Shown in pieces: positions 1 through 59,646 of a DNA stretch of 59,646 bases. Position 1 is the stretch's first letter. Every line of letters starts with the position of its first letter. The stretch lies in the IMG/VR virus record IMGVR_UViG_3300005613_000073, positions 1 to 59,646 of that record; one strand, written 5' to 3'. The translations under genes and the position numbers were made by a program. The notes beneath the pieces were generated by a model. It searched no databases and was not told the origin of the DNA. It saw only the letters and a program-made list of their open reading frames with translations. This DNA comes from a virus. Lineage: Duplodnaviria > Caudoviricetes.

Positions 1-284
1 TCGATGTCTAGTTTATACGATGGACTAGCTGTGCCTATTCCTAAGCGTTTGTTACTGTCATCCCAGAACAGTGCTGAGTCATCATCAAAGCCATCACCAC
101 CGGAGGCACCAAACAGTACCCTACCTTCTGTGATTGCGTTAGTATTCTGAAATTTATATTTAGTAGAACCATCACTTATAAATAAGTTTCCTTCATCCGT
201 TATGAACGCCGGTTCGCCCGAGTCCATTACCGCTGCAGCTAAGTCAGCAAAAGGTCCTTTTCTTAATGTAATCTTATTTGCCAT
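1..284 (-). CDS. Tail fibre-type protein, N-terminal part (runs off the window)
   Basis: Not in ORF track. GGAGG RBS, ATG at 284, reads MANKITLRKGPFADLAAAVMDSGEPAFITDEGNLFISDG...WDDSNKRLGIGTASPSYKLDI; Mtd_N-like start plus GIGTxSP fibre motif. Confidence 0.75.
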   Translation of the reverse strand, partial: MANKITLRKGPFADLAAAVMDSGEPAFITDEGNLFISDGSTKYKFQNTNAITEGRVLFGASGGDGFDDDSALFWDDSNKRLGIGTASPSYKLDI

Positions 285-296
285 TGTATTCCTCCA

Positions 297-1757
297 TTAT
301 AATGAACCACCGTCAATTACTTCGATGTATCCTGGGTTAGTGCTTAACACACCACCATCTATAGCTGGGTCACTAAAGACTGTTGTAGTCAAAGCTCCAC
401 CATCAATGTCACCACTATAGGCTGTCACTGGTGTTAAACCTATTAATATAGTATTACCAGATTTATCTATGTTCCACATTATACCATTGGTTATATCATC
501 AACAAAAGACAGTTGGTCGCCTGTCTCATGTACAGCACCATTAAGTCCAACAGCTATTGTGTTTATTGAACTAGCATCAGCCTCTACTGACATAGTACCA
601 CCATCATCAGTGACAGTAAATACTACAGATGAACTATCATTGAAATTCAAATTCTTTTCATCACCAATGCTAACATCATTATGCTTAATGTTTACTTTCT
701 GGACACTTGAGCCTTCAACAACATCTGCTGTTAAGACATTACCTGTGTAATCTAAAGTTACAGTTGAGGTATCGTCTATTACATTTCCTAGTGATGCGTT
801 GAATAATGATTGGTCGTAGTACAGATTAACAGTACCCTCGGTCAAGTCATCAGTATCTTTAGCACCAAAGGCTGAATCAAATCTAGCCTGAGTGTAATAC
901 AAGTTAGAACCCTCAGTCAAGTCATCAGTATCTTTAGCTGCGAATGATGCGTTAAACCTTGTTTGTGTGTAAAACAAATGGCTTACACCCTCAGCTAAAT
1001 CATCAGTATCCTTGTTACCAAAGGCTGTATCGAATCGACCTTGGGTGTAATACAAGTTAGAACCCTCAGTTAAATCATCAGTATCCTTAGCACCAAAGGC
1101 TGAATCAAATCTAGCCTGAGTATAATACAAGTTAGAACCCTCGGTCAAGTCATCGGTATCAAAAGGACTAAGTGATATAGTAGGTGTTAATTCGTTAGAA
1201 ACATCTGAATAACTCCAGCTAATACCAGTGCCATCTTGAATAAGATTAGCTACAGCATCGTCTACTCTCTCTGTTGTAAAGTAAAGGTTACTTGAGCCCT
1301 CACCGATATCATCTGTATCAAAGTCATTGATGTCAAATGTAAATTCTAATGTATTGTTACTTGCGTCATACTCCAGTGCTAGTCCATCTCCACTGACCCC
1401 TAGGTAATCATTAGCTAACGTAGCATTGAAGTTCTGAGACTTAGCGAAAGCTAGTGCTTCCTGTGCTAAGTAAAAAGTCTGGTCACTATCTATATTTAGT
1501 GTTTCTGCTAAGCGTATACTTGTGTTTGTAAATAAAATGTCTCTAGTTTCTTTAGTTGTTTCTCTATAGACTATGACCTCTGAACCATCAGCAGGTGCTG
1601 TAGCGAAAACAGCATTACCACCTGAAGGAGTAACTGATGTTACAACCCCATCTACAGTAGCCTTTATTGATGACCTATCAGAGTCATATGATGGGTGAGC
1701 AAAAGCAACTTGGTTGCCGTCACCCTCATAGATTAAAACAGCAGGGTAATAACTCAT
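297..1757 (-). CDS. Tail fibre protein with T7 gp17-type N-terminal anchor and acidic tandem repeats
   Basis: N-terminus YEGDGNQVAF...TAPADGSEVIVYRET...LNIDSDQTFYLAQEA resembles the T7 tail anchor domain; DTDDLTEGSNLYYT repeats; GGAGG RBS. Confidence 0.85.
   Translation of the reverse strand: MSYYPAVLIYEGDGNQVAFAHPSYDSDRSSIKATVDGVVTSVTPSGGNAVFATAPADGSEVIVYRETTKETRDILFTNTSIRLAETLNIDSDQTFYLAQEALAFAKSQNFNATLANDYLGVSGDGLALEYDASNNTLEFTFDINDFDTDDIGEGSSNLYFTTERVDDAVANLIQDGTGISWSYSDVSNELTPTISLSPFDTDDLTEGSNLYYTQARFDSAFGAKDTDDLTEGSNLYYTQGRFDTAFGNKDTDDLAEGVSHLFYTQTRFNASFAAKDTDDLTEGSNLYYTQARFDSAFGAKDTDDLTEGTVNLYYDQSLFNASLGNVIDDTSTVTLDYTGNVLTADVVEGSSVQKVNIKHNDVSIGDEKNLNFNDSSSVVFTVTDDGGTMSVEADASSINTIAVGLNGAVHETGDQLSFVDDITNGIMWNIDKSGNTILIGLTPVTAYSGDIDGGALTTTVFSDPAIDGGVLSTNPGYIEVIDGGSL
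815..1325 (-). repeat. Coding tandem repeat, five 75/78-bp units plus one degenerate unit
   Basis: Equivalent positions at 841, 916, 994, 1069 and 1144; unit DTDDLTEG(x)NLYYTQARFDSAFGAK; degenerate DTDDIGEGSSNLYFT near 1270-1325. Confidence 0.9.
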
Positions 1758-1766
1758 TGTCCCTCC

Positions 1767-2249
1767 TTATTTCTTCAATTGTTCAACGATTCGTTTACCT
1801 CGGTTTTTAACCTGTGCATACCAGTTAGAGCACTTAGCACACATAGCTACTTTACCCCAGTTAACTTCATCTTTGTTAAGCTCAGATAGCATACCTTTGA
1901 ACTTGGCTAACCTTGGTCTACCTAAGTTATAACACATATTTATCAATGCTAGCTGTTTTTCATATGGAAATAGCTTGAGCTTTTCCTCTGGAATTAAAAC
2001 AGCTAAATCCTCAATTGCAATCTTAAGCCATTTTATGCATCTCTTTTTAGCTTCCATTATAGATATAACCTCAAAGTATGCTCTGGCTGGTGTACCGTAG
2101 CCTATGCTCCAGCGCTGTTCACCGTTGATTACACCATCTTTGTATGCTGTGTGATGTGGTGCACCATTAATGTATATCATATCACCTGGACCTTCATCTA
2201 GCATTATTCGTTCTAGTAAAAGCTTGAAGTTTTCCCTATTAACATACAT
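1767..2249 (-). CDS. Lysozyme/endolysin, GH24 (T4 lysozyme-like)
   Basis: DEG...AYKD...WSIGYG, ALINMCYNLGRPRLAKFKGML, SNWYAQVKNR motifs; start probably 2249 or 2267 rather than 2588 because the longer ORF overlaps the upstream gene. Confidence 0.85.
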   Translation of the reverse strand: MYVNRENFKLLLERIMLDEGPGDMIYINGAPHHTAYKDGVINGEQRWSIGYGTPARAYFEVISIMEAKKRCIKWLKIAIEDLAVLIPEEKLKLFPYEKQLALINMCYNLGRPRLAKFKGMLSELNKDEVNWGKVAMCAKCSNWYAQVKNRGKRIVEQLKK

Positions 2250-2697
2250 ATGTTTTTGTATAACCATGGTGTTCAAGCGCTTTAAAGAGTCTCTCAGGAT
2301 AGTATACGTGGTCTTCTTTTTTAATACATCCTCTAGCTTTAGTTGATCTTGCGATAGAAGCAGCGAACTCTGAGCAGAACCATTTATCAGGATGCTCTCG
2401 TCTCCAAGGTGTCCAACACGTGAGTGCACCGAGGAAGTCATAATCATAGCTACCATTGCAAAAACTATCCAACATTGCTTTAACATTAGCTGTATTACAC
2501 TCGAGTTTAATAATTTTGACTTCACATCCTTTATACGGGTGATTACATGACTGTATTTTTCTACAGCCAACAAACGGATATGCTTCATAATATGTACTCC
2601 CTATCTTAATAGCCACATGAGTTGACCACCCTGTAAGTCCTATAATTTTATCCAAAAAAGATTTACCTTTCATAAAATGTAGTTCAATATAATTCAA
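2239..2697 (-). CDS. Permuted papain-like amidase (YaeF/YiiX, C92 / permuted NlpC-P60)
   Basis: His before Cys: STHVAI...YDY...WFCSEF; probable TTG start at 2697 after AAGGAGG. Confidence 0.8.
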   Translation of the reverse strand: MNYIELHFMKGKSFLDKIIGLTGWSTHVAIKIGSTYYEAYPFVGCRKIQSCNHPYKGCEVKIIKLECNTANVKAMLDSFCNGSYDYDFLGALTCWTPWRREHPDKWFCSEFAASIARSTKARGCIKKEDHVYYPERLFKALEHHGYTKTYVC

Positions 2698-2716
2698 AGT
2701 TTCCTCCTTAGGTTGC

Positions 2717-2738
2717 ATGGGTGACCGAAGCCACCCAC
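2717..2738 (-). other. cUUCGg tetraloop hairpin without U-tract
   Basis: Minus strand GTGGGTGGC-TTCG-GTCACCCAT between the gp16-like gene and the amidase RBS. Confidence 0.7.
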
Positions 2739-2748
2739 ACGTTTCTAG

Positions 2749-5700
2749 CTATCTTTGCTCTAGTTTTGCTTGTTCAACTAGTATTCTATATTTAGCTATA
2801 TCTTCATACTTCTGTGTCATCTGTTCTTTAGCTTTAGCTTTAGCAATAGACATTATACTACTAAACATTTCAGCACGAGAACCTCTATTCAAGGAACCCA
2901 TGATATACTGAGACTTACTACCTTTATCCCATGCTTGACTCTTAACTACTTTAGACATCATAGCCTTAAAGGAATCTCCAGTCATCTTGAGATAATCATG
3001 CCTCTGCTGTGCAGTTAGTTGTTTACCATCTATTTTTCTAGTGTCAGAATAATGACTACCTAAGTTATACTTGTCATTAGCAACGTACCACTTAAGGTAA
3101 TTGCTTATGTTATCTTTATCTGGTTCTTGTATTAAAGGATTACTAATGTTTGGTGCGAATGGTATTTTGTTGAATGAGTCTCTAGGTTCACCTAAGAAGT
3201 CAAGTTTCTCTATTGAGCTATAAGTTTTAGTGAAGTTACCAGAAACCTGCCTTGCTCCGGCAAACATGTGATCTAGAATAGTAACATACTCATTAACAAC
3301 ACCTGGTCTTTCTGTGTTACCTGATAACCTTTTAACAGCTACATCAACTTCACGCATGAACTGAGTAGAACCTAAGAAAGGAACTGGAGTAGATGCAGCT
3401 AACACTTGGCCAGCTAATCTAGTCGTCTGTCTTCTAGGGTCTTTAAGCCAACTAGCTAAGTTCATAAAACCCTGCATAGCAGCTTTGTCTGTCAAAGCGT
3501 GTGCTAATGATGCCATAGCTATTGAGGTAGCTCTTGTCATACCATCTTCATCTACATATTCTGATTCAGCCATCAATTCAAGGGCTTCCATGGTGTCTGC
3601 TGTCAATGCTAAGAATCCAGATAATGGGTCCATTGCATCAAAACTCATAGCACCTTCGCCAGGAACGTAGATGGAATAAGGCATAATACCTGCTTCCTGT
3701 AACTCAGGTTTCTCTAATGGTAGTCTACCATAGATAAGACCATTCTTTTTCATATAAGCACCCATACCTATAACTGAAGCACCTATCATGATTTCTGCAT
3801 GAGCTCGATGTGGGTCAGTCTTAAGTAAATGCTTATACCATTCTGTAGCATGTTGTACAGTAGCCGTTGGTAACTTAATACCACCTGTGCCTTTGAAGAA
3901 ATCTCTCATGCGCTCTGTTGGTGCTTTTTCTGCTAATAGGGTCATCGCTTTACCTGTGCCCTCTTCAAAGAAGAATGACATAGGACCTATAGTTCTGTTG
4001 GCAACAAACATAAGCGCATTGATTGGTTGCTTTATAACAGGAAACAATATCTTAACAAGAGGTACCTCATTAGATATCTTCTGTAATTTCCTTGCTACCG
4101 ATTCCTCTGGTAAGTCACCAGACATTGTGAAATCCTCTGGTATCTGTTTCCATAGATCAGGTTTCTCAGCTATAAGGCTTTTGTTTCTAATAAGAGCATC
4201 TTCAAGAAGCTCAGGAGTTAGTGTCCCACCTTTCTTTGTAAGTTCAGCTACAGCCATGTCATAGGCTAGAGCATTTATCCTTACATTAGCGTTCATTACC
4301 TTAGCCATTTCATCTGTAGCCAGGAGTATATTTAAACTAGTTCGCATTAGTTTACCATACATATCAACCCTACCAGCACCTACGGCTCTAACTAGAGATT
4401 CTCCAGCAGCACCAAAGTTCTCACTAATAGCTGTTGCTGTTACTGATTTAGCATAATAATCTTTATCTGTATGTAACAAAGCGTCTGAGAAAGCAGCACT
4501 CATGTTGTTCTCAATACTGAAGTTAGGTAGCTCTGTTTTAAATGCTTTCTTAGCGTAAGCCCAAGCACTTGCACAAGTGTCACCATAGTTATGGAAAAGG
4601 TATCCTACTCTATCTAGATCACCTTTGAATAGTGAAGAGAGTGACTCAACGCCAACATTCCAAGTATATCCAATAGAAGTACCAAGGACATTCTTCATAA
4701 CAGCTTTACCGGCAAATAAGTTTGCAGCAAATACTTCAGTCCAAGTCTTAACCATTCCTTCCCAGCTACCATTGTTTACTATAGTTCGTATAGCTTTAGC
4801 TGTGCCACCAGGTGAGTGTTTAGCTGTTTTAGCTATGTTCTCCATTATCTGGAGTACTTCTTCTTTACTAATGTCCCCACCTTTGAGTTTAAAGAATTGT
4901 TTAATCTTAGCTAATGCCATAGTAGAGTTACCATCACCAGAGATACCACGTAATATATTAGTATCACGCATAAGCCTAGTTGTACGTGCTGAAGCTGACT
5001 TCATCCTGATGTAGTTATCAAAAACAGTAGCCATTTCAATAACACGAGTAAGGTTCTCTGTCACAGCTTCGTCTGTCATTTTGTGAGCGCCTATAGTACG
5101 GTAGTTCAATACAGTCCTGTCTAGTTCTTCACTCAATGCTTTAACATAGTATGCTGTAGCAGCTAATCTGACAGGAGCAAGTTCAGCATCCCTACGCCAC
5201 GATCTGACAGCCTTAGGGACATCAGAATCACCTAAGTGATTCAACAAGTCTTTACCCATATCAAGTAGCTCTGGTATTGCATAGTTTTCTTTGTCCTTAA
5301 ACAGCGCTGTACCAAGTGCATCTAAAACAAAAGCAAACTCTTCATCACTATCGTAATTATGTCTGCTTAACCAAGTAGCATCTGTTATAGCTTCATTATC
5401 TAAGAACTTCTTAATGTACTCTGCTGTACCTTCTTTATCTCTTTTAGTCAACTTAGCTCTGAACTTAGGTTCTACCTTGTTATACTCATACTTAGATACT
5501 TCGAGTGTAACCTTAGGTCTACCTTCTTTAGAAATCACCTTTGGAGCTTCAGTTACATTAGACTCTGGCACACCTTTAGCATCAGCTGTTTGAGTAGCTG
5601 TGTCTGGTATTGTAGATTCTTTAGCAACATTATCGGCAGCACCTGTTGTTTCTTTAGTTGACTTAATTAGGTCATTTATCAATCCCTGAGCTTTCTTAAA

Positions 5701-9814: not shown

Positions 9815-10363
9815 TTACCCTCCCATGCTAGCATATGTCATTAACCCTGATGTACCAACCTGTAGTGCACCTAGTACTGGGCTAACGTGATTTGATTTAA
9901 CTACACTGGCTTCATTAATAGCTTCAACATTACGGTTACGTCTGTTTAACCAGTTTATTGCATTGGTGTCCTCAAGCTTACCTAAGAACGCCTCTTTCTC
10001 GCTGGCGACTTTACCTAGTTCAAAACCTGTCTGAACGTCTATACTATTAACCGAAGCTAACAAAGACTTTGAGCCTGAGCTTATACCAGCACCTGCACCA
10101 GCAGCCTCAACTGTAGCTTTATTCTTTAAACTAGTGCGTGCCAGATCAAACTTGGCTTGCATCTCATTCTTTATTGCGTTTACTTCCTGTCCTTCTAACT
10201 GTGAACGCCTAGTGTCGTAGGCTATATCAGCCTGAGTGTCACGCTGCTCGATAGCACGTAACTGAGCTCTAACAGTAGCGTTCTGTTGTTTTATTTTAGC
10301 ACCTTCAGCACCCATAGAGGCAGCTGTGGCTATGATCTGTAGTGTAGCTGGGTCTAAGCACAT
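9815..10363 (-). CDS. Internal virion protein B (T7 gp14-like)
   Basis: MCLDP start, Ala/Gly-rich, size and synteny. Confidence 0.75.
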   Translation of the reverse strand: MCLDPATLQIIATAASMGAEGAKIKQQNATVRAQLRAIEQRDTQADIAYDTRRSQLEGQEVNAIKNEMQAKFDLARTSLKNKATVEAAGAGAGISSGSKSLLASVNSIDVQTGFELGKVASEKEAFLGKLEDTNAINWLNRRNRNVEAINEASVVKSNHVSPVLGALQVGTSGLMTYASMGG

Positions 10364-10836: not shown

Positions 10837-10853
10837 TGTCTCTCCTAAAGTAG

Positions 10854-10874
10854 AGCTAGGGAGTTACCCTAGCT
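10854..10874 (-). terminator. Hairpin after nozzle gene (weak terminator or processing site)
   Basis: AGCTAGGG-N5-CCCTAGCT perfect stem; poor U-tract. Confidence 0.4.
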
Positions 10875-14465: not shown

Positions 14466-14475
14466 GACTCCTCCA

Positions 14476-14508
14476 ATAAAAGTAAAGGGACACCCGAAGG
14501 TATCCCTT
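14476..14508 (-). terminator. Rho-independent terminator after capsid gene (T-phi position)
   Basis: AAGGGATACC-TTCG-GGTGTCCCTT followed by TACTTTTATT. Confidence 0.85.
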
Positions 14509-14516
14509 ATGTTTTC

Positions 14517-15539: not shown

Positions 15540-15595
15540 TAGTATCTCCTTGTTTTAGTTGTTAGCTAAAGGACGTATGATTAAAACAAAGGTAT

Positions 15596-15655: not shown

Positions 15656-15665
15656 TTGCTTATAG

Positions 15666-18173: not shown

Positions 18174-18175
18174 AG

Positions 18176-18394: not shown

Positions 18395-18397
18395 AAA

Positions 18398-18592: not shown

Positions 18593-18615
18593 ATAAACCT
18601 CCTAAGTGTTATACA

Positions 18616-20163: not shown

Positions 20164-20184
20164 TTCCCCTCCTCATATATCATT

Positions 20185-51100: not shown

Positions 51101-54100
51101 CATGGCATGAGAGCTTTTTACAATACAATGATCCCTAATATAGTTGGCAACTACCTTAAAAAATTAGACAAAAAAGCAAAAGTCTCTGTGAGCAAACTTT
51201 CTACAGGTGAGGAAGTCTGGTCAGTTAATATAACTGATAAAATGAAAGACAAAGTTCTTGAAGGCCAAACCCTGTTTCAAAAAGCACAGGGGCTGGAGCC
51301 TAGAGGATCTATAAAGATGTCAAAAAACAGAGCTCAGTATTTTATATCCCTTTTCCAGAGAGCTAACCTTTCAACAGCTCTGCATGAACTTGGCCACGCT
51401 TTTCTTTTAGAATTAACTGAGTTAGTCCATTCAGGAAACGCACCTACTAAAATGCTCCAGGACTGGGAGATTGTCCGCAATTATTTGGGTACTGAAATTG
51501 GAAAACTCCCAAACCGAATGCAACATGAAAAATTTGCAAATGGCTGGCTTCAGTATCTCAGGACGGGTAAAGCTCCTAACAGCAATTTAGTACCTGCCTT
51601 TGAGCATTTCAGAAAGTGGATGACTTTTTTATTTAAAGACTATGAAGATCTTCCTGGTATGACTCCTGAAATGGAAACATTCTTTAACCGGATGCTCAAT
51701 GCAGATCAGGAAGCGAACGCAGCTATTGAAGATAATACTTTGAGCCTATTAACTCCTTCTGTTCGCAAAGCTTTAAATTTAACCAATGCAGATGCCCAGG
51801 ACATTGATTCTTTAATCAAGAAAATGAAACTACAGACCAGAGTTGATGTAGAGTCTGACAGAAACAAGAATCAAGAAAAGCAAAGAAAAGAATGGGCAGA
51901 GGAAGCAAAGCAACAAAGAAACTCAGAGCCTGTATATAAATTGGCTACTTCATTAACGGAAAACAAAGGGCTGGACGAAAATGAAATTTTTATGGAAGTA
52001 GGTCAAGAAGGGCTTAATGAATTAAAGCGTAAAGATCCAAAACTTGTGCAGAAAAATGGAAGATCTGTAAAAGCGGCAGCAGATACATACAATTTTCAGA
52101 GCCCTATGGATATGGTTGTGCAACTGTTAGACATGCAGACTGAAAAGCAGTATGTTGAAGAATACGTACAGCAGAAGCAAATTATATCTGATTCTGAAAC
52201 AAAAGCCGAGGCAGTAGCTTACGAGCAGAAAGCATACGAGCAGATCTTACGCAAGACCGCTGAATACATTCAGCGTAATAACAAAGGGTCCGACACTCGT
52301 GTATCTATGAAAGAGATAAAAGATCAGGCAGAAAAACTTATTGCTAATATGACAATGAGAGATGCCACAGCTTCCTATAAGTATTTAGGCGCTTTGAAGA
52401 AAGCCAATAGGCTTGAAAAGAAAGCTATTATGAAGCAAGACTGGTTCGAGGCTGCAAGACAGAACAGAATGGCCAGGCTTAACTTTGAGCTTTACAAAAA
52501 GTCTATGGACATGAAAAAGAATACAGAAGCCAAAGCCTTAAGCAAGGCTAAAAGATATGCTTCTGCTAATCCATCTAAGACTTTGTCTTTTGAGTTCTTA
52601 CAAGGCATCAAAGAATTGGCTACTAGATATGGCCTGGTCCCTGATGGTGTTCAGAAATATTTACCTGATAAAATAAACAGAAAAAGAAATCTCACAGATC
52701 TTTTAAGTTCTGATGATGATCTTCTGGATACAGGGGCTGCTTTTTCTGACAGATTCTTTACAGATGAGTATGTGAACTATAAAGATCTTACAGTGGGTGA
52801 ATTTAAAAACCTTACAGATTTTATAGATCATTTATACCACAGGGGAAGAAGTGAAAAGCAGAACACTATTGAAGAGGGTGAAACAAAACTTATTGATGCA
52901 GTTATGGCTTGCATAGAACCTATGGAGAAAATAGGGGATATCGCTAAAGTCGATGATAACTCTAGATGGGGTAAAACTGTTAGGCAATTAAGAGACTGGT
53001 TTGCAGATCTCAGTATGTTTCAGTTCATTGTTCAAAGAGCAGATGGCTTTAAAACAGATGGACCTAATCACAGATACATCTGGAACAGATTGTCTGCTGC
53101 TGACAGTAAAAAAGCGGAGTTAAAAGAAAGAGTAGCCAAACAACTTGAAGGTCCTCTTAAAAGATTGCAGGAAAAAATAAGTTCAATGCCTGCTACTCTC
53201 AGGACAAAAGTTCCTGTTCCTTATTTCATGCAAAATGAAGGGATTAACTGGACACCTGAAAGAGCTCTTGCAATAGCTCTAAATATGGGTAATGATTATA
53301 ACTTTGATACAACAATACAAGGATATGAAATATCAAGAGCTGAAGCCTTTGAATTGACCTCTTTCCTGTCTGATTCAGACTTAGATGACATTCAGGTCAT
53401 CTGGGACACTGTAAACAGCTTATGGCCAGAATTAAACAGAGAATTTTACAAGATTAATGGCTACTACCAGGACAAGGTTAAGGCTAAAGAAATAATATTC
53501 CCTAGTGGTAAGAAATTAAAAGGTGGATATTATCCTATAAAATATGATCCTAAACTTTCGGACATAGCAGGTGAGTGGAAAGAAAAAGAAGATATTATGA
53601 ATGCTTCGGGCGCTTTGTTTCCTGTTGTATCTGTTAAAGCAGGGCACATGAAGGGGAGACTTGGGGGCGCAGGACGACCTGTTTATTTAAGTTTATCTGT
53701 GTTATCTGAGCATATTGAGACTGCTACAAGTTATATCGCTTTTGGTAGTGCAGCCAGAGAAGTATATAAAATAATGAATCATGGCCAGTATAAAGAAGCC
53801 ATGACTAAAACTTTTGGAAGTGCTTTAAAAAGTAAAGTAAGGCCAATACTAGCTTCTGTGGCAAGACCTCAGCCAAATAAAATGACCGCAATAGGCAGAC
53901 TCATGAACAAGCAAAGATCTTTGGCTACTGCTTACATATTAGGTGCTAATGTGTCTGTGGCGCTTAAGCAGCCATTCTCAGTGTTTGGTTGGGCTAATAG
54001 AGAAGGTATGAGTGCCTTATTAGATGCTTTTTATTTTTGCTGTTTTGACAGGGGTGAAACTTTCAGAGTAGCTACTGAATACAGCACAACAATACGCAAC

Positions 54101-54940
54101 AGAGATACAAATTTATCAAAGTCTATTAATGAAACAATGGCCAATATAGATTTCAGAGATGCCAAGTTTTTAGGTGTTAATAAGAAAGATGTAGCTGATT
54201 GGCTATTTGCTTTGATTAAGTTTGCAGATATGTTTACTGTACTTCCTATATGGAGAGCCTCCTACAAAAAAGCAACATCTGAAGGGCTTACGCACAAGCA
54301 GGCAGTTATAAAAGCAGACAGTGCAGTATCTGCTACTCAGCCCATGAACAGAAAAATAGATCTTTCAAATCTGCAAATAAGTGGAGATGGAGCATATCAA
54401 ATGTTTGCAATGTTCAGTTCATTTACAATGAAGTATGGTAACAGGCAGTCATATCACTGGAGCGGGTGGGCCAGAGGAGCTATTAACAATAGGGATTTCT
54501 TAACATTCTTACTGGTAGAAACAATGGCACCTGTGCTGGGTATGCATTTATTGTTTGGATTATTGCACGGAGAAGATCCAGAAGATTTAATTAAAGACCC
54601 TAAAATGATAGTAGATCTTTTATTGTATGCAGTATCGGGTACACCTATCGTAAGAGATGTGGCTTCTGCTGCTGCTAAGGGGTTTGGAGTTAACAGCCCT
54701 ATTATGGAAGGTATGGATCTCGCAGGAAATGCCCTTGGCTCTTTGATTGCTTTTGCTAAAGATCTTGGAGATGATGACTCTTTTGAAAAAGCCATGTGGG
54801 CTTTCTTTGAATTGTTATCTTACGGCACAGGAATACCAGCCAGCAGGCTTGTACATAAATTCAAAAAAGGAATGGAACAATACAAAAAAGGTGAGGGTAC
54901 AGCATTCAATATTCTGGCACCGGCACCAAGGAGGAATTAA
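42188..54940 (+). CDS. Giant polyvalent ejection protein (gp16 position) with ParB-like, DarA_C-like, LPD23-like, ART-like and zincin domains
   Basis: 4250 aa; VVNGHNRL; YDTVLSQEEI..GLTP; TGWFRGLDGKWRFEISD with HEIQH; FHGT...G..YFT; EEIQSDWHQ; STALHELGH; GGYYPIKYD. Confidence 0.82.
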   Translation: MKDVIENVDLQIRKNAEAAVNMSSFLNPDKEAEMFELHKSTEVPVNLLKNLSPDQIRSLKHGNPLDKISRESALIDYYSVPENAAISGDDADNLSKVEADWKALKANDSKDKSIFDELKEAGTSISEKFEQGQIENTLGDLYFKKILLGQEIDENEIAELEARLEEITLTASPDTADYALGEASKIAGQMFDAVWKHKGAIAGSTAIGAGIGSQIPVAGTLTGAGYGALTGFVGSQAKNAYFVEAGMAAKDLSDIRDDNGVPIDPEIIKVAAHAVGAINASLELAGIGFLSLIAKNVGGKVIAKGTVRSLTKKALRDKVVIEALGKVAKDYAIGVAGDAVTEGMQEAVNILSEYISKEVSQKIEGTEFSENELFTAENFGRVGTTMKDVFVGNTVLTIPAGGVSTYNTFTKARKAQQFNDAVKGINETLENSTTKQRSPNKVAEALSVLGMEQDVFIDPDDAKTMFQDNPELLAELELDDATISNYSAEGKLIPFKLNKLFAKLNKEQFDIVRPWIRASEAAMNIKDLQNKDMQKELNNVIEQYETATKDEDYFQENIKRVKQELVDSGYTEQDAQHVVDLWEAFSRRMAFEGRELSETLERINIERIKRDEFKKRQKSGVQLPLNTARVQKRKAPKVTVPKEKVFKPKTVTEVKKVKDIKKDMPGVTVLKSKEIIYDPERFQFKVTGKEKAGKGLSGKKFNVKLLGVLDVWKDPETDKIYVVNGHNRLQKIREENFPYVPVNFIDAKSAKEARAIGALLNIGTGSGSAIDAAIFIKESEYTIQEVTEMLPEKKVVTDGIALSRLSRKVLLEVQRGEFDEDLAVLIGANLENIEDQKEVISAVKRKENPSKKWLREYIRQVQFAPQIEESTMGLFGEMVSTRSLFNERAEVSNAIVTRLSKDKQLGTIAAKAGFIEEKGAGKINVKTAKGLAQFAKQATEVFQKLSVTKGEISNIVNKYAMELQKSKDKNAVYDAAYKEIRDVLAGQLESGKTLKQSQAERTAKLRQEHNRFPGDTKASMVKEFFDTGKLVNKRKDGSIKYTFTKSAKDNSLIQRTTFDSKNQPMSDKEAPFTKEGLESLIDDSDILVTEKRIKRPDIPKSMRVREGSPLNFLYKIKETAPEGRIATRGDVVVYDTVLSQEEIDQHGLTPIGYEDKTPVFYQFGGIMAERADLGKHDIAERMEYENKSPEEIRKKTGWFRGLDGKWRFEISDKGMKLKRKEFNKHMSTILLSGNSTTLGKLIDHKALFSQYPVLKGTEVEFEHSVNKEPGTWGAQVISPSGSPFNKKIVLNVKNLKNKRYIIEDVLVHEIQHLIQTREGFAPGGSTDTGNAVLTKVIQGFLPVIPRLRMFFNEEYFKNLFEIVDGLNEKDLEKNYIKFKSDFEEAIKKYMPKHDTEMKDLIYSVSKKGVDLSMQSFKELMRNRHYQLGYEIFVRRKELLEKARERNEYKQMLADKYNTTAYGNLITKEEHRTLVEKSDELFRVKKDMRNYATLRLRNDTYAHAMYLEDADNPRNGYNRMYQYYLKDFLKTPFEIYESIKGEFEARETSNRSKMTQAERKGLEPYVLTFQKEGLQPGELVEVDEGIYYQDGKADIERLKLETEKYLDISSYAELSEGKELKTAEQIALHNTVVEIKQVLWDTGYFSDNALYEMRNVKSLDDMEYVEEYLEQAGDLRTKEEIYESNLEVISEDLEAGIAPEELVNEFYEEALENPFELSKKTMGVTEDLMEAGYILPDGTLLDFSGKREGGPIGKRSMDHRQISLPFKSGISGTDAMVAFQKMGAMRIDVRSGLVDLETKPTRSQLDNLKDMILFSEEGVLTVDLQDGDRKLSFDTTSASEAIRKISDFYKVSETLFQAGTEDIYYQDGKADTYFYGGTDLNLREPAPFDTGFGKAVVLARSDAEAREQGGNYVQRVSVNTNKILNLDEGVKYEDAKNTKAWKKKKAELQEERKQAVLREEIDPEYTFLSAEDLEDSFKEEMGNEGDFVFQRELIEELGYEGVVLQKGERDEMLYVFDPKNVSFDPQSNNIYFQTYNTLDRINEVRDTGKASRDTEYLEAVESGDTSKAQQFVDDAANKAGYNVEAFHGTTHDFRVFDPEKKGNVEGFLGKTNYFTSDQTDAESNYGSIGGADLAIRVEEATEQLLNNLEGEQFDIDDITRLTGLTEEQLQERNYIDQDLEVIDENSRELAELMAQKDLYGGEDKVLDVRLKMEKPVTVMANKDRRGVAVFTSDEYIDNGIEGLDLEEAWQDVKEEQGLEDSDRGDYASEIRQFALETSMREPRIVEVLREVIGQEYGGEEAVQDILESLDYSVYEDEINAGELMTVMKQSEHLNYIQDEYDGGLISSDLIRKVFEELGYDSIILENAENAFSNMGLDYDTTHYHIFDSNNIKSADPVTYDTEGNVIPLSERFDTGKEDIYYQDDLGYFSALEQSVSDLQFKTMPAKDLANRIKKIPGLKQEEMEWTGVIEWLELQGNEKVAKADVMTFIEAGGVQLSEVGSILSKEEREERRQEFRENQEEQAREDVREAFEDIYVDKTGRPGPDAWEHFIIDEDADVISLLNKIKHTEEYKEWDEQYEKTLTDAEVIEKISESYVFAVEIAQLFDDANNDGAISLEDTNMGREEWFEYLYDDLYEAALESIQEADAWEENAPSGKHEDYIHPSPEYKNYNEKLLTAPRIKGDFYHQQHWGSVRNVLAHLRSTERKLLIQKSDLQDTFHIEEIQSDWHQKGRDYGYIGGPLGLKIKNLIKQLEKVEAEYRTELERVLSTELKKMTRLEYGLMRKPNATEARMEAYLREQGIDPNAEVYYDTESRQMFREPISPKRREAEVSITVGALLRDLKYKIDDLKTEIRIQKRQEVPDAPFKSSNAWALLVFKRALRLAIDSGHDYISWNPGEVNADMYNIRKQVRSISYNRSSKAFAYITLAGDQRVKSNVSEEKLKGYVGREAAEKLLTKEGDYITLEEEGLEVGGHGMRAFYNTMIPNIVGNYLKKLDKKAKVSVSKLSTGEEVWSVNITDKMKDKVLEGQTLFQKAQGLEPRGSIKMSKNRAQYFISLFQRANLSTALHELGHAFLLELTELVHSGNAPTKMLQDWEIVRNYLGTEIGKLPNRMQHEKFANGWLQYLRTGKAPNSNLVPAFEHFRKWMTFLFKDYEDLPGMTPEMETFFNRMLNADQEANAAIEDNTLSLLTPSVRKALNLTNADAQDIDSLIKKMKLQTRVDVESDRNKNQEKQRKEWAEEAKQQRNSEPVYKLATSLTENKGLDENEIFMEVGQEGLNELKRKDPKLVQKNGRSVKAAADTYNFQSPMDMVVQLLDMQTEKQYVEEYVQQKQIISDSETKAEAVAYEQKAYEQILRKTAEYIQRNNKGSDTRVSMKEIKDQAEKLIANMTMRDATASYKYLGALKKANRLEKKAIMKQDWFEAARQNRMARLNFELYKKSMDMKKNTEAKALSKAKRYASANPSKTLSFEFLQGIKELATRYGLVPDGVQKYLPDKINRKRNLTDLLSSDDDLLDTGAAFSDRFFTDEYVNYKDLTVGEFKNLTDFIDHLYHRGRSEKQNTIEEGETKLIDAVMACIEPMEKIGDIAKVDDNSRWGKTVRQLRDWFADLSMFQFIVQRADGFKTDGPNHRYIWNRLSAADSKKAELKERVAKQLEGPLKRLQEKISSMPATLRTKVPVPYFMQNEGINWTPERALAIALNMGNDYNFDTTIQGYEISRAEAFELTSFLSDSDLDDIQVIWDTVNSLWPELNREFYKINGYYQDKVKAKEIIFPSGKKLKGGYYPIKYDPKLSDIAGEWKEKEDIMNASGALFPVVSVKAGHMKGRLGGAGRPVYLSLSVLSEHIETATSYIAFGSAAREVYKIMNHGQYKEAMTKTFGSALKSKVRPILASVARPQPNKMTAIGRLMNKQRSLATAYILGANVSVALKQPFSVFGWANREGMSALLDAFYFCCFDRGETFRVATEYSTTIRNRDTNLSKSINETMANIDFRDAKFLGVNKKDVADWLFALIKFADMFTVLPIWRASYKKATSEGLTHKQAVIKADSAVSATQPMNRKIDLSNLQISGDGAYQMFAMFSSFTMKYGNRQSYHWSGWARGAINNRDFLTFLLVETMAPVLGMHLLFGLLHGEDPEDLIKDPKMIVDLLLYAVSGTPIVRDVASAAAKGFGVNSPIMEGMDLAGNALGSLIAFAKDLGDDDSFEKAMWAFFELLSYGTGIPASRLVHKFKKGMEQYKKGEGTAFNILAPAPRRN

Positions 54941-54943: not shown

Positions 54944-57820
54944 ATGACTGTAGCAAGCAGTGTAAACAAGACAGCGCGGTTAGCTTGTGACGGTGTAATC
55001 ACTCGTTTTGACTTTACTTTCAAGATCTTTGAATCCGCAAATCTTCAGGTTTATTTAACGAACGTGCAGACAGACGCGGAGGCCTTGCAGACTGAAGTCA
55101 CTGATTACACTGTAACAATTAATGATGATTACACAGGATACATCACGTTCGGCACAGCTCCGAGTTCTGCATATGTTGTCACAATTATTAGGGAATTAGA
55201 TATTGTGCAAGAAACAGATCTCAGTAACCAGGGTGCGTTTTTTCCTGAGGTACTTGAAAAACAACATGATAAAGGCATTATGATAGCTCAGCAACTTAAA
55301 GAAGAGCTAGACAGATGTCTTAAAGCTCCTTTGACAAGTACCGATGACCCCACTACTTTATATGGCGAACTAGAAGCGGCTGCAAATGCTTCAGAAGCGT
55401 ACACCAGCACTTATGAAGAAACTGTCACCGACTTAGTTAAGCAGACATTTACAGTAGATTTTAACATAGATGCTACAAAACGAAATGTAGCCATACATGT
55501 GAATGGCCTGAAGCAAGCAGGATCTGCTTTCACTTTAGTAGACGCAAGTGGGAATGTGGTAGTTTCAGGCACAACTAAATATGTGAAGCTTAACGAATAC
55601 ATCAATCAAGGAGATCTTTTTGAGGCTTCTTCTCTTGATATTACAGGAACAGGAACAAGCTCTTACAGTGCTGAAACTTTATTATCTACCTTTGGAGGAG
55701 ACTTGGCTACTGCAATAACAACAATAGGTGCTCTTGACAGAACACTATTGATGGATACAGCTATTAATCTTACTGAGGATGTAACTGTACCTAGTAATAT
55801 AAGTCTAAGATTCACACCTACTGGAGTAGTTACAATTGCTTCAGGTAAGACTCTTACCATTAATGGCAATATTGATGCAGGAGCTTATCAGATATTTGCA
55901 GGCAGTGGAACTGTTGCAGGAATAGAAGGGCATGACATATGGGTTGAGTGGTTCGGTGCTTATAACGACCCTGCAAATGTTGGAGGTGCAGCAGCCATAT
56001 TAGCTAATACTACTGCTTTTCAAACTGCTTGTTCTTATGAGGGTAGTAGAGTTACTACTCTTAGAAGTACCTATTATCTAGATGAACAAGTGAACTTATA
56101 CCCTGGGGTGACTTTAGATTGTGCGGACAGTGTTATACATTTCAATAAGAAAATAACTTCTGTTGGCTCTGGTTTTTTCTTGATTCGAGATAACAAGCTT
56201 TGCAATATTCAGTTGCTATTTTTTAATTGTGCTAATGCTGCTGCGGGTGCAGCTCTTTCGATAATTCAGATAGGCAGACATTATACTGATTCTGGTGTAG
56301 ATGCTCCTATACCTGTTGGATGGGTTGAAGCCAAAAACTGTATTGTAGAGAATATTACTTTTGACGCTGAAGGACTTTTGGACGCAGGTGGTCAATATGT
56401 CAATCCAATTTTTTATTCCAATAAATCTTATAACATTACAATTAGAAATATTGAGGCTATTGGTAGAGACATATTCTATAACCTGATACACAATGAAGGG
56501 TCGCAGGATTATTCTGGGGCAGGTACAGTTTTTGATTTCAGTTATAATGTTTTAATAGAAAATATTAGAGCATATGATTTTGACACACTCGATAAAGAGT
56601 CAGTAGTTATAAGTGTTAGATCAGGTAATACAGTTATAAGAAATGTTGAGGTAGAAGGGTGTGGCCAGACAGTGCATTTAACTACTGCACCTGTGTCTCA
56701 AAATGAAAGTGACAACGCTTACATATCAGGCAATCACCAGTTAGTGGACAATGTTATTTGCATTGATACTAAAGTTAAAGCGGTAGCAGGTCCTCTTGCT
56801 ATAATCAAAGTATTTTCTCAGACAACTGATGAAACAGACACGGAAGAAATAGCAATGCAGACCGTGAGAAATGTGAGTATAAGAGCTAATACTCCAGGCG
56901 TAGGGTATACAGGTTTTTTCCATGGCGTGCAAATTAACGAAACAGCCTTTATAGCAGGTTCTGTAACTCGTAATGTAGTAGTAGATCAATGCGACATTGC
57001 CAACTGCGATGTGGGGATATGGGCTTATGGCGGTAGAAACATTACTATCAGAAATTGCCGTAGCAGAATGAACAGAGGAAATGGGATATCTATTGTAAAA
57101 ACTGACTTAGCCGTTATAGATAACTGCCATGTATACAACAACAATGTGGATTCTGATTATTCTAACGAAGCCAGTTATTCTGGGCATGGTATACAAGTTA
57201 GACCTTATCTTAATTCTATGTTCTATATTACTAATTGTAGACTTGGAAGTTCAGAACAAACGATTGGAGCAGAAACACAGTTAAATGCGATACATATACA
57301 CACGCATGACGGTGATAAGCACCAGGGTGTATATGGGCATATTCAGAATTGTATTATTGATAACTACAAATCAGGAAAGTATGAGGTGTATTGTATAGAT
57401 AATGATTCTTTTATAACTATGGATAATGTAATTAACACTAATAAAGAATTAAGACTATCCGGCATATATGACCACACAGCTAAGCCTACAAAATATATGA
57501 TTGAAAAATATCATATCACATACAACAGAAACCTGGCAGCAGCAGCCACACCAGGTTGGCAGTGTGTGAGTAGATATGACGATGCTTTAACAGGGACCAC
57601 AACAGCAGGTAATGCTACTTTAGCTTTTGCGGACACTTCAGGTATGTTGGCTACTGATGTTGTTGGGGTATTGAATGATAGCGGTGATTTTGAATGGTTT
57701 ACCATTTCAAGTGTAGATTCAGGTATTCAGATAACATTGTCAGGTAACTTGGCTGTTACAGCCACTACAGGCAATAGAGTTGTTTTTTGTAGATGGGCTG
57801 CGTTAGCAGTATTAACATAA
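54944..57820 (+). CDS. Tailspike / tail fibre with T7-type anchor and beta-helix (putative depolymerase)
   Basis: DG..TRFDFTFKIF...QETDL.NQG.F.PEVLE...D anchor; VEWFGA; repeated I.N/I..C beta-helix pattern. Confidence 0.85.
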   Translation: MTVASSVNKTARLACDGVITRFDFTFKIFESANLQVYLTNVQTDAEALQTEVTDYTVTINDDYTGYITFGTAPSSAYVVTIIRELDIVQETDLSNQGAFFPEVLEKQHDKGIMIAQQLKEELDRCLKAPLTSTDDPTTLYGELEAAANASEAYTSTYEETVTDLVKQTFTVDFNIDATKRNVAIHVNGLKQAGSAFTLVDASGNVVVSGTTKYVKLNEYINQGDLFEASSLDITGTGTSSYSAETLLSTFGGDLATAITTIGALDRTLLMDTAINLTEDVTVPSNISLRFTPTGVVTIASGKTLTINGNIDAGAYQIFAGSGTVAGIEGHDIWVEWFGAYNDPANVGGAAAILANTTAFQTACSYEGSRVTTLRSTYYLDEQVNLYPGVTLDCADSVIHFNKKITSVGSGFFLIRDNKLCNIQLLFFNCANAAAGAALSIIQIGRHYTDSGVDAPIPVGWVEAKNCIVENITFDAEGLLDAGGQYVNPIFYSNKSYNITIRNIEAIGRDIFYNLIHNEGSQDYSGAGTVFDFSYNVLIENIRAYDFDTLDKESVVISVRSGNTVIRNVEVEGCGQTVHLTTAPVSQNESDNAYISGNHQLVDNVICIDTKVKAVAGPLAIIKVFSQTTDETDTEEIAMQTVRNVSIRANTPGVGYTGFFHGVQINETAFIAGSVTRNVVVDQCDIANCDVGIWAYGGRNITIRNCRSRMNRGNGISIVKTDLAVIDNCHVYNNNVDSDYSNEASYSGHGIQVRPYLNSMFYITNCRLGSSEQTIGAETQLNAIHIHTHDGDKHQGVYGHIQNCIIDNYKSGKYEVYCIDNDSFITMDNVINTNKELRLSGIYDHTAKPTKYMIEKYHITYNRNLAAAATPGWQCVSRYDDALTGTTTAGNATLAFADTSGMLATDVVGVLNDSGDFEWFTISSVDSGIQITLSGNLAVTATTGNRVVFCRWAALAVLT

Positions 57821-57832
57821 GGAGATTTTAAA

Positions 57833-59365
57833 ATGAAAAGATTATTAGTAGTATTTTTAATTGGCTGTAGCATTTATGCAGCAAGTGCTGATCTGCCAAG
57901 TTGGGACACAGATAAATCCTACCCGCCTCAGTTGAGGTTCGGGTGGAGTGATACAGATCCTAAGGCTTTCAATGTAGGCACAGACGGGATCTTAAAAGTT
58001 ATATTTAGTTCACCACTTCAAGCTGCTCCTACTTGGAGCAGTAGTAAACATTATCCTTTCAGTTCTATGTTTGGGTATGATACTGATGCGGGGGATGGAA
58101 CTCTAAAAGGTATAGCGACAGACTCAGACGGTGCAGTATATGTTCAGGCTTTAGGTACAATGGAAGTGGATACAATTGAAGCTACATTCATCGGGGACAT
58201 AAGGACAAACAGCATTTGCAATTGTACAGGTTCACAAACTTTAACCATAGAAGTCTCAGACAATATGGAAAGAGCTTTCTGGATTGTTGGAGATGATGGA
58301 CAAAGATACATGTGTGTTGACACACTTAACACTGATCCTGCTGTCAGGTTAGGTTGCGTGTCCGGCGAGAATGTGTTTGAGGTTGGTTCTTCAGGTATAG
58401 TTATTAATGAACTTGGAGCATCCTACAACACAAGAATTGAGGGCGACACAGACGCAAACTTATTCTTTGCGGATGCTTCTGCTGATAAGATTGGCATCGG
58501 CACGAGTAGCCCTGGTACACTTTTAGAACTTGCTCAAACTAATCCGGACTTTGCTTTAAATTCAACAGGTAATTCAGACTGTTATCAATATTTTAAACAA
58601 AATGGAACCGTTAAAGGTGCTTTTTGGCTTGATGAAAATGTAATCGGTGGAAGCGAAAACGAGTGTATACGGCTCGATGTTGGAAGTTTGGGAGATGGCG
58701 ATTTTATTTTTACTCCAACTGGAAAATTAGGCATAGGCACGAGTAGTCCATATACACCTCTTCACGTTGAGAAAAATGATGCAACTGCTTATGATGAATC
58801 AACAGCATTAACAACTTACAAAGAAGTATCAAGATTAGTTAATTCAAATACAACTGCGCAATCATTTACTGGTTTAAATTTACGTGCTGGTTCAGCAGAT
58901 ATGGGAATTGTTGGAATATATGAAGCTGCAAATCAAGGAGAACTCGCTTTTTTACTCGATAATTTCGAAGCGATGAGAATTAATCATTCCGGCTATGTTG
59001 GCATCGGCACGAGTAGCCCAACGCAAAAGCTACAACTAGAAACAGGTAATTCCGCAGGTGTTGGAATGAATTTAAAAAACACTACAGGTAATGGTGTAGT
59101 TGGTTTGGACGGTGGTGAGGATATATATTTGGATGCTCAGACAGCAGGAGCGGGAATTGAGTTTAGAACGCAGACTGTCAACAGAGCTATTGTGACCGCT
59201 ACCGATTTTAGACCAGGTGCTGATGATACATATTATGTGGGTAAAAACGATGACGACAGTCCGGCAGCATGGAAAGGTATTATCTTAAAAGACACTACCA
59301 ATGGGACTTATTACAGAATAGAAGTTATCAACGGCACTATAACTGCAACTGATTTAACGGATTAA
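57833..59365 (+). CDS. Fibre-like protein with N-terminal signal peptide and GIGTSSP repeats
   Basis: MKRLLVVFLIGCSIYAASA then DLP; three GIGTSSP; INE.GA.Y..RIEGDTD.NLF. Confidence 0.75.
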   Translation: MKRLLVVFLIGCSIYAASADLPSWDTDKSYPPQLRFGWSDTDPKAFNVGTDGILKVIFSSPLQAAPTWSSSKHYPFSSMFGYDTDAGDGTLKGIATDSDGAVYVQALGTMEVDTIEATFIGDIRTNSICNCTGSQTLTIEVSDNMERAFWIVGDDGQRYMCVDTLNTDPAVRLGCVSGENVFEVGSSGIVINELGASYNTRIEGDTDANLFFADASADKIGIGTSSPGTLLELAQTNPDFALNSTGNSDCYQYFKQNGTVKGAFWLDENVIGGSENECIRLDVGSLGDGDFIFTPTGKLGIGTSSPYTPLHVEKNDATAYDESTALTTYKEVSRLVNSNTTAQSFTGLNLRAGSADMGIVGIYEAANQGELAFLLDNFEAMRINHSGYVGIGTSSPTQKLQLETGNSAGVGMNLKNTTGNGVVGLDGGEDIYLDAQTAGAGIEFRTQTVNRAIVTATDFRPGADDTYYVGKNDDDSPAAWKGIILKDTTNGTYYRIEVINGTITATDLTD

Positions 59366-59376
59366 GGGGGTGAGGT

Positions 59377-59646
59377 ATGAAAACAATTCTAATTATAATG
59401 TTATTGTTGGCTACTCTTTTGCAGGCGAACACAAAGATCAGAAGATCATCACTTGATTCTTCTATCTTTGCGGATACAGCAGAGGCTCAATATATGACAA
59501 TTGAAACTTGCATCATGAACCCTGTCAATGTGCAACAAGCCATAGATAATTATTCATATAATTCTACAGAAGTATGGACAACAGCAGAGGTAAGATCTAA
59601 TACTATTAATACCAGTGCTGAAGTCCGCACAATCATAGATAATTAT
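59377..59646 (+). CDS. Signal-peptide-bearing protein, truncated by window end
   Basis: Not in ORF track: GAGGT RBS; MKTILIIMLLLATLLQA then NTKIRRSS...; open to the edge. Confidence 0.65.
   Translation, partial: MKTILIIMLLLATLLQANTKIRRSSLDSSIFADTAEAQYMTIETCIMNPVNVQQAIDNYSYNSTEVWTTAEVRSNTINTSAEVRTIIDNY

Follow-up and report, generated by a model that had tools for sequence, protein, structure and literature searches.

The 59.6-kb contig analyzed here (the window, 59,646 nucleotides, which is the entire viral record) encodes two podovirus morphogenesis modules, both real and intact, that belong to widely divergent lineages. We favor, at about even confidence, the explanation that two phages occurring together and having an early region in common were mis-joined in the record. 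The initial annotation had proposed a composite phage, a fusion of two phages or a misassembly; the evidence partly supports these readings and leans toward the last without settling among the three.

Two virion gene sets on one contig

Both complete head-tail gene sets are present where annotated, based on PHROG, Pfam and PDB matches, and we confirm that they run in the same order and face outward, from a divergence point at 22.2-22.6 kb. The arms share no similarity detectable by BLASTP (E<=0.01). The contig encodes a single terminase pair (TerS and TerL, in the right arm), as was also annotated. The record has linear topology and is rated 94% complete; each end is cut within a fibre gene, leaving both ends open, and the true size is 59.6 kb or more. 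We reject a circular genome, and also a rotated circle as the origin of the 123-bp duplication discussed below, because the window ends share no direct or inverted repeat. Joining the ends would also create convergent, overlapping reading frames, an implausible continuation.

No close relative of the record was found. Near and distant DNA searches of a phage collection gave no match; a further DNA search of the collection gave matches of about 47 nt, in YopX only. Scans of viral contigs with single proteins (PrimPol-helicase, left portal, TerL and ORF221) or with exact 40-44-mers of the window also gave no match.

The T7-like left arm

The left arm (3-18592, minus strand) has a full T7-like set of portal, scaffold, capsid, gp11 to gp16 and fibre genes, preceded by an exonuclease gene:

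3-284, minus: second fibre-like ORF, N-terminus cut by the contig end
297-1757, minus: fibre, 486 aa, with the N-terminal domain of T7 tail fibres and a DUF285 match below threshold
1767-2588, minus: 273-aa protein, weak lysozyme-like C-terminus
2749-7956, minus: gp16-like internal/ejection protein, 1735 aa
7934-9814, minus: 626-aa internal/ejection protein in the gp15 position
9815-10363, minus: gp14-like internal/ejection protein (PF24072)
10354-10836, minus: gp13-like internal/ejection protein
10873-13881, minus: nozzle, gp12-like
13881-14465, minus: adaptor, gp11-like
14485-14508: terminator-like hairpin after the capsid gene
14517-15539, minus: capsid (phrog_267; PDB matches to T7-like capsids)
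15666-16436, minus: scaffold
16620-18173, minus: portal (phrog_449, E 6e-102)
18622-18647, minus: terminator-like hairpin separating the exonuclease from the late genes
18738-19604, minus: T7 gp6-type 5'-3' exonuclease

The portal, scaffold, capsid, gp11 to gp16 and fibre genes are collinear, with matching families, and the same order occurs in the loci of relatives. The capsid is homologous to T7 gp10, with PDB matches to 8i4l (E 2e-31), 2xd8 (E 7e-18) and 2xvr, which is T7 gp10A (E 3e-14). The gp13-like proteins, initially annotated as GNAT proteins, have no Pfam signal for that domain in either arm. The best non-self homologue of the portal among 5.8 billion proteins is 35% identical, and identity to the portals of Pelagibacter, Ralstonia and Pseudomonas T7-like phages is 31-34%.

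Including the exonuclease and the terminator after the capsid gene, the arrangement is that of T7-like podoviruses (T7, P-SSP7 and the Pelagibacter phage HTVC019P group). Unlike in these phages, a phage single-subunit RNA polymerase, a T7-type DNA polymerase and a DnaB-type primase-helicase were not found on the contig. The two polymerases had no match among the scanned ORFs of this incomplete contig, and on this basis the arm does not qualify for Autographiviridae. Also unlike T7-like podoviruses, replication is predicted to rely on a PrimPol and AAA_25 helicase with YopX, a divergent promoter region and rightward genes lie upstream, and the terminase of this arm, which would be expected downstream of the fibre genes where the contig ends, is absent from the contig.

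The BPP-1/epsilon15-like right arm

The right arm (28346-59646, plus strand) has a full BPP-1/epsilon15-like set including TerS and TerL, with RusA located upstream:

27422-27859, plus: RusA, followed by a 121-aa ORF
28346-28984, plus: TerS
28972-30300, plus: TerL
30825-32501, plus: portal (phrog_332, E 2e-151)
32498-32821, plus: Bbp19-like protein
32799-33446, plus: scaffold/protease-like protein (phrog_458)
33459-34454, plus: capsid (PDB 3j4u, E 2e-92; 3j40, E 1e-72)
34465-34857, plus: Bbp16-like protein
36099-36710, plus: adaptor, gp11-like
36713-39301, plus: nozzle, gp12-like
39294-39779, plus: gp13-like protein (PF11090)
39751-40263, plus: gp14-like protein
40272-42191, plus: 639-aa protein, lysozyme-like N-terminus
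42188-54940, plus: 4250-aa polyvalent protein in the gp16 position (LPD22, LPD23, weak ART-PolyVal)
54944-57820, plus: tailspike, 958 aa, beta-helix
57833-59365, plus: fibre, 510 aa
to 59646, plus: further ORF, cut by the contig end

The initial annotation described this set as BPP-1/P22-like. The BPP-1 part holds, as BPP-1/epsilon15-like, and the P22 part does not: the capsid matches 3j4u and 3j40, which we take to be the BPP-1 capsid (T=7) and that of epsilon15, and the Bbp16-like and Bbp19-like proteins match PF21190 (E 7e-15) and PF25181 (E 3e-8). The capsids of T7, BPP-1 and epsilon15 are all T=7. The late operon is headed by TerS, TerL and portal, an order also found in three other loci (L001, L004 and L082). 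From TerS to the Bbp16-like gene the order follows that of BPP-1 and epsilon15, and the portal is 39-41% identical to those of Vibrio phages and epsilon15.

Unlike BPP-1 and epsilon15, the arm has the 4250-aa polyvalent protein in the gp16 position, and the contig has no integrase or lysis genes. In relatives the PrimPol-helicase is co-directional with the terminase and 4-8 kb upstream of it, whereas in the window it is on the opposite strand. No integrase or reverse transcriptase, which would indicate a lysogeny module or a BPP-1-type diversity-generating retroelement, was matched among the scanned ORFs of the incomplete contig, and no lysis genes were found on it. The 5.7 kb upstream of TerS contains no replication helicase belonging to this arm.

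The central early region

Between the arms are two divergent sets of early genes and their predicted control sites:

19750-22422, minus: early operon of YopX (19750-20163), PrimPol and AAA_25 helicase (20185-22161) and HTH (22186-22422)
22437-22598: divergent control region with an inverted TTGCGTAA pair and a rightward promoter
22523-22550: rightward promoter, TTGACA-16-TATACT
22599-26943, plus: AT-rich early genes of unassigned function (ORF53, ORF48, ORF218, ORF66, ORF221, ORF129, ORF115, ORF195 and HTH_19)
26752-26943, plus: HTH_19 protein
27011-27276: three repeat copies, about 50 nt each

Six of the eight occurrences of the 8-mer TTGCGTAA are in two spots, the control region (about 22440-22441, plus, and 22473-22474, minus) and the repeats (27029-27245), which lie just upstream of RusA and the terminase. 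The core TTTGCGTAAA is common to the control region and all three repeats. The repeats also contain TGCCA-NN-TGGCA (3/3) and ACGCA-TT-TGCGT (2/3). We considered ACACTTA as a late-promoter motif common to both arms and rejected it, as its weak enrichment at 18.6-18.7 kb and 27.3 kb is unconvincing.

An ancestry boundary bridged by a second contig

The genes on either side of 19500-20250 have different affiliations. Among 80 loci of T7-like relatives, 47 have an exonuclease homologue upstream of the portal, and none has the PrimPol-helicase or YopX. Relatives of the PrimPol-helicase occur upstream of a TerL or portal of the right-arm type in 11 of 80 viral loci, as well as in L082 and L083. Because the exonuclease fits T7-like loci and the PrimPol-helicase fits loci of the right-arm type, homology places a true ancestry boundary at 19500-20250.

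A second metagenome contig, L081 (20,483 bp), is 99.7-99.98% identical to the window, although both may share one sample. The part of L081 examined covers 14749-22760 and includes the T7-like arm, exonuclease, YopX, PrimPol-helicase, HTH and divergent promoter. L081 thus confirms the connection of the T7-like arm to the PrimPol-helicase cassette as far as 22760. The initial annotation had also suspected a chimeric join at 19500-20250; the ancestry boundary stands, and the chimeric join is ruled out because the separately assembled contig bridges it. Differences from L081 cluster at a single place in the window, with six substitutions at 21426-22072 (there is one in 5439 bp of the T7-like arm), consistent with a community that holds two forms of the central cassette.

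Since L081 bridges the boundary, 19500-20250 is not the weak point of the record. That is 22760-24055, because L081 stops at 22760, within a translationally coupled operon and at no natural boundary, and a join-like duplication lies at 23810-24055. We found no independent sequence that joins 22760 to the right arm (22760-27400).

The 123-bp duplication and a proposed mis-join of two phages

The roughly 6 kb between the arms contains an exact 2 x 123-bp tandem duplication (23810-24055). Its identity run equals its period exactly, so it has no flanking microhomology. In a scan of 200 records (2.65 Mb), no other exact duplication had a period above 75 nt, and no other had a run equal to its period. 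A report on assembly describes de Bruijn assemblers as breaking at branching paths, which leaves shared ends of length maxK or maxK-1, and notes that joins suggested by shared contig ends may not be legitimate (PMC10914622). The duplication looks like a candidate untrimmed contig-end overlap, and we suspect that it marks a stitch of two halves that come from different genomes.

Under this explanation, phage A would have T7-like virion genes downstream of an operon of HTH, PrimPol-helicase, YopX and exonuclease, and phage B, of the BPP-1/epsilon15 type, would have early genes, RusA, TerS, TerL and virion genes. The two may share, or have recently exchanged, part of the AT-rich early/regulatory region. 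The assembly graph would have branched in this common region, and two assembly contigs would have been stitched at 23810-24055 via a 123-nt end overlap. Each arm would then be the ordinary virion gene set of its own genome of about 35-50 kb.

Together with the duplication and its resemblance to assembler end overlaps, the stop of L081 at 22760 and the substitution cluster support this mis-join. An identical copy of the left portal is recorded on a 15,321-bp contig, and the PrimPol-helicase of the window, unlike this portal, has no recorded copy, complete or fragmentary, which also favors it. Two PF12236 portals occur in none of the whole records of 43 relatives (exactly one occurs in 24 of the 43), and complete relatives are 34-48 kb, compared with at least 59.6 kb for the window. 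The length is a further argument, because the right capsid is of the BPP-1 kind, and a T=7 capsid of this type would be too small for 60 kb or more.

Other features count against the mis-join. L081 may come from the same sample as the window, and the duplication could have arisen naturally and very recently. No gene is truncated within 18-29 kb and the operons run continuously through the center. The TTGCGTAA sites connect the control region, which L081 supports, with the repeats near the right-arm terminase. The PrimPol-helicase subfamily accompanies a TerL or portal of the right-arm type in relatives, and since the right arm has no other replication helicase in the 5.7 kb upstream of TerS, this one looks like its own. 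Tetranucleotide correlations across the arms (r 0.33-0.56) approach those within arms (0.48-0.70; the median for unrelated contigs is 0.23), and Shine-Dalgarno sites are of the same style in both.

Alternative explanations

The same features make it possible, although we consider it less probable than the mis-join, that the record is correct and represents one replicon of about 65-70 kb encoding two complete, unrelated podovirus virions. A BPP-1/epsilon15-like phage (control region, PrimPol-helicase, early genes, RusA, terminase and virion genes) would have captured a T7-like exonuclease-to-fibre block as an extension of its leftward early operon, behind the replication genes. Such a replicon could be a transitional form in a structural-module swap, or a helper and passenger on one DNA, and it would probably be kept as a prophage or plasmid, being too long for either capsid type. 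In its favor, two separately assembled contigs (possibly of one sample) connect the T7-like block to a replication cassette of BPP-1 type, coupled small ORFs run across 22760, and the long ORFs of both arms are all intact. Against it are the unbridged stretch at 22760-27400, the join-like duplication at the center, the lack of a second portal in the records of relatives, the size of complete relatives (at most 48 kb), and the absence from the contig of a left-arm terminase, integrase and lysis genes.

A limited literature search found no described phage with two head-tail modules, and one locus with RusA divergent from a PrimPol-helicase (L005) proved not to be a second case. Sulfitobacter phage PhiGT1 represents mosaics in which podovirus structural blocks of different lineages were joined by ancient recombination, as may be the case here; its blocks complement each other to make up a single virion and meet at two adjacent tubeA genes, whereas those in the window are complete, redundant sets (PMC10386132). 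A phage satellite is not indicated, since each arm of the window is complete for head, tail and ejection genes and there is no integrase match. Capsid-forming satellites of the cf-PICI type resemble the record in that an extra capsid gene set travels with another phage or depends on it; they have an integrase and lack a full tail and ejection set.

A fragment of bacterial chromosome holding two prophages, head to head or nested, each excising and packaging alone, is improbable. In its favor, prophages are not limited in size, both contig ends fall in phage genes, beyond which there could be host flanks, and relatives of both kinds include some that are classed as proviruses. Against it, the window has no integrase match, tRNA or host gene, no att-like repeat lies between the arms, the arms meet at a single compact divergent promoter/operator region, and the record is classed as a linear virus, not a provirus.

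Implications

If the contig is a stitch, as we favor, a record rated nearly complete is a composite of two phages, which calls for caution in viral catalogues, and an exact duplication of this kind could serve as an inexpensive marker of such joins. Should the join be real, the limited search suggests that no tailed-phage replicon carrying two complete head-tail systems has been described before, and the record would offer a direct view of whole virion-module exchange. The replicon would be a living intermediate of a whole-module swap or the maker of two particle types, perhaps with different host ranges and under one proposed regulator that binds the TTGCGTAA sites, and its length relative to either capsid would raise the question of what gets packaged. 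Either way, the T7-like virion module is linked to a PrimPol-helicase cassette that otherwise accompanies BPP-1-like phages, and this unusual mosaic is real, because the link is present in two contigs, possibly of one sample.

Two head-tail gene sets on one contig

The record is a single linear virus contig of 59,646 bp, all of it within the window, with a CheckV completeness estimate of 94%. Fibre-like ORFs are cut through at both contig ends, and the window has neither terminal repeats (direct or inverted) nor a tRNA. A circular genome was rejected, as the frames become convergent and overlap when the ends are joined. Searches with PHROG, Pfam, and PDB sequences identified two complete head-tail gene sets, as the initial annotation had claimed, and BLASTP found no similarity between left-arm and right-arm proteins at E<=0.01.

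Left arm and leftward early operon
22186-22422, -, HTH protein, leftward early operon
20185-22161, -, PrimPol + AAA_25 helicase, leftward early operon
19750-20163, -, YopX, leftward early operon
18738-19604, -, 5'-3' exonuclease, leftward early operon
18622-18647, -, terminator-like hairpin after the exonuclease, before the late genes
16620-18173, -, portal, T7-like series
15666-16436, -, scaffold, T7-like series
14517-15539, -, capsid, T7-like series
14485-14508, -, second hairpin, next to the capsid gene
-, gp11-like, gp12-like, gp13-like, and gp14-like proteins, T7-like series
-, 626-aa protein, then 1735-aa gp16-like protein, T7-like series
-, lysozyme-like protein, T7-like series
-, fibre with T7 fibre N-terminal domain and start of a second fibre

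Diverged tandem repeats with a 75-nt period occur in the left fibre gene (834-1205, -; a 144-nt family has 76-78% identity), which also gives a DUF285 match below threshold.

Right arm, BPP-1/epsilon15-like
+, TerS and TerL, head of the arm
30825-32501, +, portal
+, Bbp19-like protein and scaffold/protease-like protein, between portal and capsid
33459-34454, +, capsid, then Bbp16-like protein
+, gp11-like, gp12-like, gp13-like, and gp14-like proteins
+, 639-aa protein with lysozyme-like N-terminus
42188-54940, +, 4250-aa polyvalent ORF at the gp16 (ejection protein) position
+, beta-helix tailspike and fibre

On the + strand, the packaging genes come after a 5.7-kb stretch of small AT-rich genes and RusA. 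The right capsid protein matches PDB entries 3j4u (E 2e-92) and 3j40 (E 1e-72), which we take to be BPP-1 and epsilon15, respectively. The 4250-aa ORF contains LPD22 (residues 16-107), LPD23 (1161-1218), and, below threshold, ART-PolyVal (2078-2192); for this type of podovirus, such a polyvalent virion protein is very large. A 277-aa protein (34863-35696, +) encoded between the Bbp16-like and adaptor genes has a 56-residue stretch in common with the 510-aa distal fibre (57833-59365, +), at 48% identity by BLASTP; this may be a common attachment domain.

A gp13-like GNAT had been proposed in each arm, and Pfam gives no GNAT match for either gp13-like protein. Among 80 loci of T7-like relatives, 21 have a homologue of the right one (39294-39779) at the position of gp13, and none has a homologue of the left one (10354-10836) at E<=1e-4.

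The phage collection holds no near DNA match to the window. The left portal reaches no more than 34% identity with the phage records listed and no more than 35% with any non-self protein (among 5.8 billion); the right portal reaches no more than 41% with the phages listed, and the closest PrimPol-helicase homologue is 42% identical.

The T7-like arm is joined to the replication cassette

An exact 44-mer of the left portal located a single metagenome contig, L081, compared here over its bases 1-8257 of 20,483. Bases 1-2583 correspond to window 22760-20180 (99.69% identity) and bases 2819-8257 to 20187-14749 (99.98%). The match spans 14749-22760, and therefore the T7-like module is truly joined to the HTH/PrimPol-helicase replication and regulation cassette. 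Over 5.4 kb, the T7-like arm differs by one substitution; elsewhere there are a 2-bp indel at 22424 and ~235 additional L081 bases, which follow the helicase stop and precede the YopX start. All six substitutions in the 2.6-kb central cassette lie at 21426-22072, within 650 bp of the PrimPol domain, and could reflect a recombination tract or two collapsed cassette versions. Given the additional bases, substitutions, and indel, we take L081 to have been assembled separately, from a near-identical population in the same or another sample. The additional L081 bases encode an 88-aa CxxC...CxxC (zinc-ribbon-like) protein (gene at L081 2580-2846) between PrimPol-helicase and YopX, exactly on the T7-like/BPP-1-like ancestry boundary (window 20180/20187).

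That boundary is placed by gene neighbours in both sets of relatives' loci. All window proteins were searched against 80 viral loci around PrimPol-helicase relatives. A right-arm-type TerL or portal lies downstream on the same strand in 11 (L001, L002, L004, L009, L024, L031, L038, L044, L056, L058, and L062), with the HTH homologue immediately upstream in L009; left-arm head or tail proteins occur in none of the 80. A further 33 loci came from bacterial genome contigs, among them L082 (PrimPol-helicase, then right-type TerL and portal) and L083 (helicase, then right-type TerS). Around left-portal relatives (29-34% identical), 80 loci were searched, many of them short fragments with little upstream DNA. 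These encode homologues of the scaffold (68), capsid (60), gp12 (42), and, upstream, the exonuclease (47); PrimPol-helicase or YopX occurs in 0/80 of these often short loci. By these neighbours, T7-like ancestry stops at the exonuclease (<=19604) and BPP-1-like ancestry starts by the helicase (>=20185). The junction initially annotated at 19500-20250 thus stands as an ancestry boundary but not as a chimeric join, as L081 runs across it.

A weak link at 22760-24055

The start of L081 falls precisely on window 22760, where a 53-aa ORF has its stop codon. This ORF overlaps the next start codon in a tight rightward operon (promoter TTGACA-16-TATACT), and the position is no natural boundary. An exact 2 x 123-bp tandem duplication lies ~1.05 kb to its right, at 23810-24055; its identity run equals its period, so there is microhomology at neither edge. 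When 200 records (2.65 Mb) were scanned for exact tandem copies with periods of at least 30 nt, it was the sole one with a period above 75 nt; the few elsewhere have periods of 30-75 nt, and every run is longer than its period. The duplication looks like an untrimmed contig-end overlap, presumably of a length that would fit k=124. De Bruijn assemblers break off where the graph branches, leaving shared ends that are maxK or maxK-1 long, and joins suggested by such ends "may not be legitimate" (PMC10914622).

The protein collection gives one further, indirect hint: it lists an identical left portal from a 15,321-bp contig. That contig probably ends before ~20.3 kb, near the site of the additional L081 bases, because the PrimPol-helicase is missing from the collection, both whole and as fragments.

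ORF221 (24044-24709, +) weakly matches a DNA polymerase processivity factor PHROG (phrog_947, E 2e-7). By eye, we take its C-terminus and that of ORF195 (25690-26277, +) to resemble sliding-clamp ends; BLASTP found no similarity between the two.

Repeats at 27 kb and the control region

Three ~50-nt repeat copies at 27011-27276, spaced 123 and 93 nt, have the core TTTGCGTAAA. TGCCA-NN-TGGCA is present in all three and ACGCA-TT-TGCGT in two, and a long hairpin (~27318-27360) follows just upstream of RusA. A TTGCGTAA core of these repeats is found again in the divergent control region. The four 8-mers conserved throughout the three copies are found outside the repeats only at 21114, 22440-22442, 22473-22474, 23443, 23458, and 52247; the sites at 22440-22442 and 22473-22474 form an inverted pair within the control region. 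One regulator probably serves both this region and the stretch just upstream of RusA/terminase, and the repeats may act as an origin or as a regulatory array.

One molecule or two phages

We put at about an even chance that the arms stem from two phages mis-joined at a node of the assembly graph. A genuine dual-module replicon seems to us rather unlikely, and several features would accord with it. No gene is truncated across 18-29 kb, the control region and the repeats upstream of RusA/terminase have conserved 8-mers in common, and the ribosome-binding sites are of GGAGG type in both arms. There are exactly three occurrences of the ribosome-binding context TAAAGGTGGTAC (22584, 23905, and 24028), the last two in the duplicated 123-bp unit. 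TETRA correlation between arms (0.33-0.56) is about as high as within arms (0.48-0.70) and exceeds that of unrelated contigs (median 0.23, n=253 pairs; same-contig halves, median 0.63, n=23). The helicase is of a type that goes with right-arm-type phages, and the right arm itself encodes none. All these features would, however, also be expected from two co-occurring phages of a single host with a homologous early region in common.

Portal counts and genome size argue against a dual-module replicon. PF12236 identifies two portals in the window; among whole records of 43 relatives, one portal was found in 24 and two in none. Relatives' records rated 100% complete span 34.6-47.9 kb, whereas the window, open at both ends, already measures 59.6 kb. 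Phage records among the portal matches listed are mostly 37-44 kb (epsilon15, 39,672 bp). The right half by itself, which includes the 12.7-kb gene, would require ~45-50 kb. Capsids of the T7, BPP-1, or epsilon15 kind, which we take to be T=7, would be too small for a genome of at least 60 kb. The literature searched yielded no phage with two portals or two structural modules. In the nearest published case, PhiGT1, the two blocks are reported to be complementary parts of one virion (PMC10386132), whereas the window has two complete sets.

Adjacent or nested prophages are improbable, with no integrase, tRNA, host gene, or att repeat seen in the window. Whether or not the arms were mis-joined, both modules are real, and so is the connection of the T7-like arm to the PrimPol-helicase.
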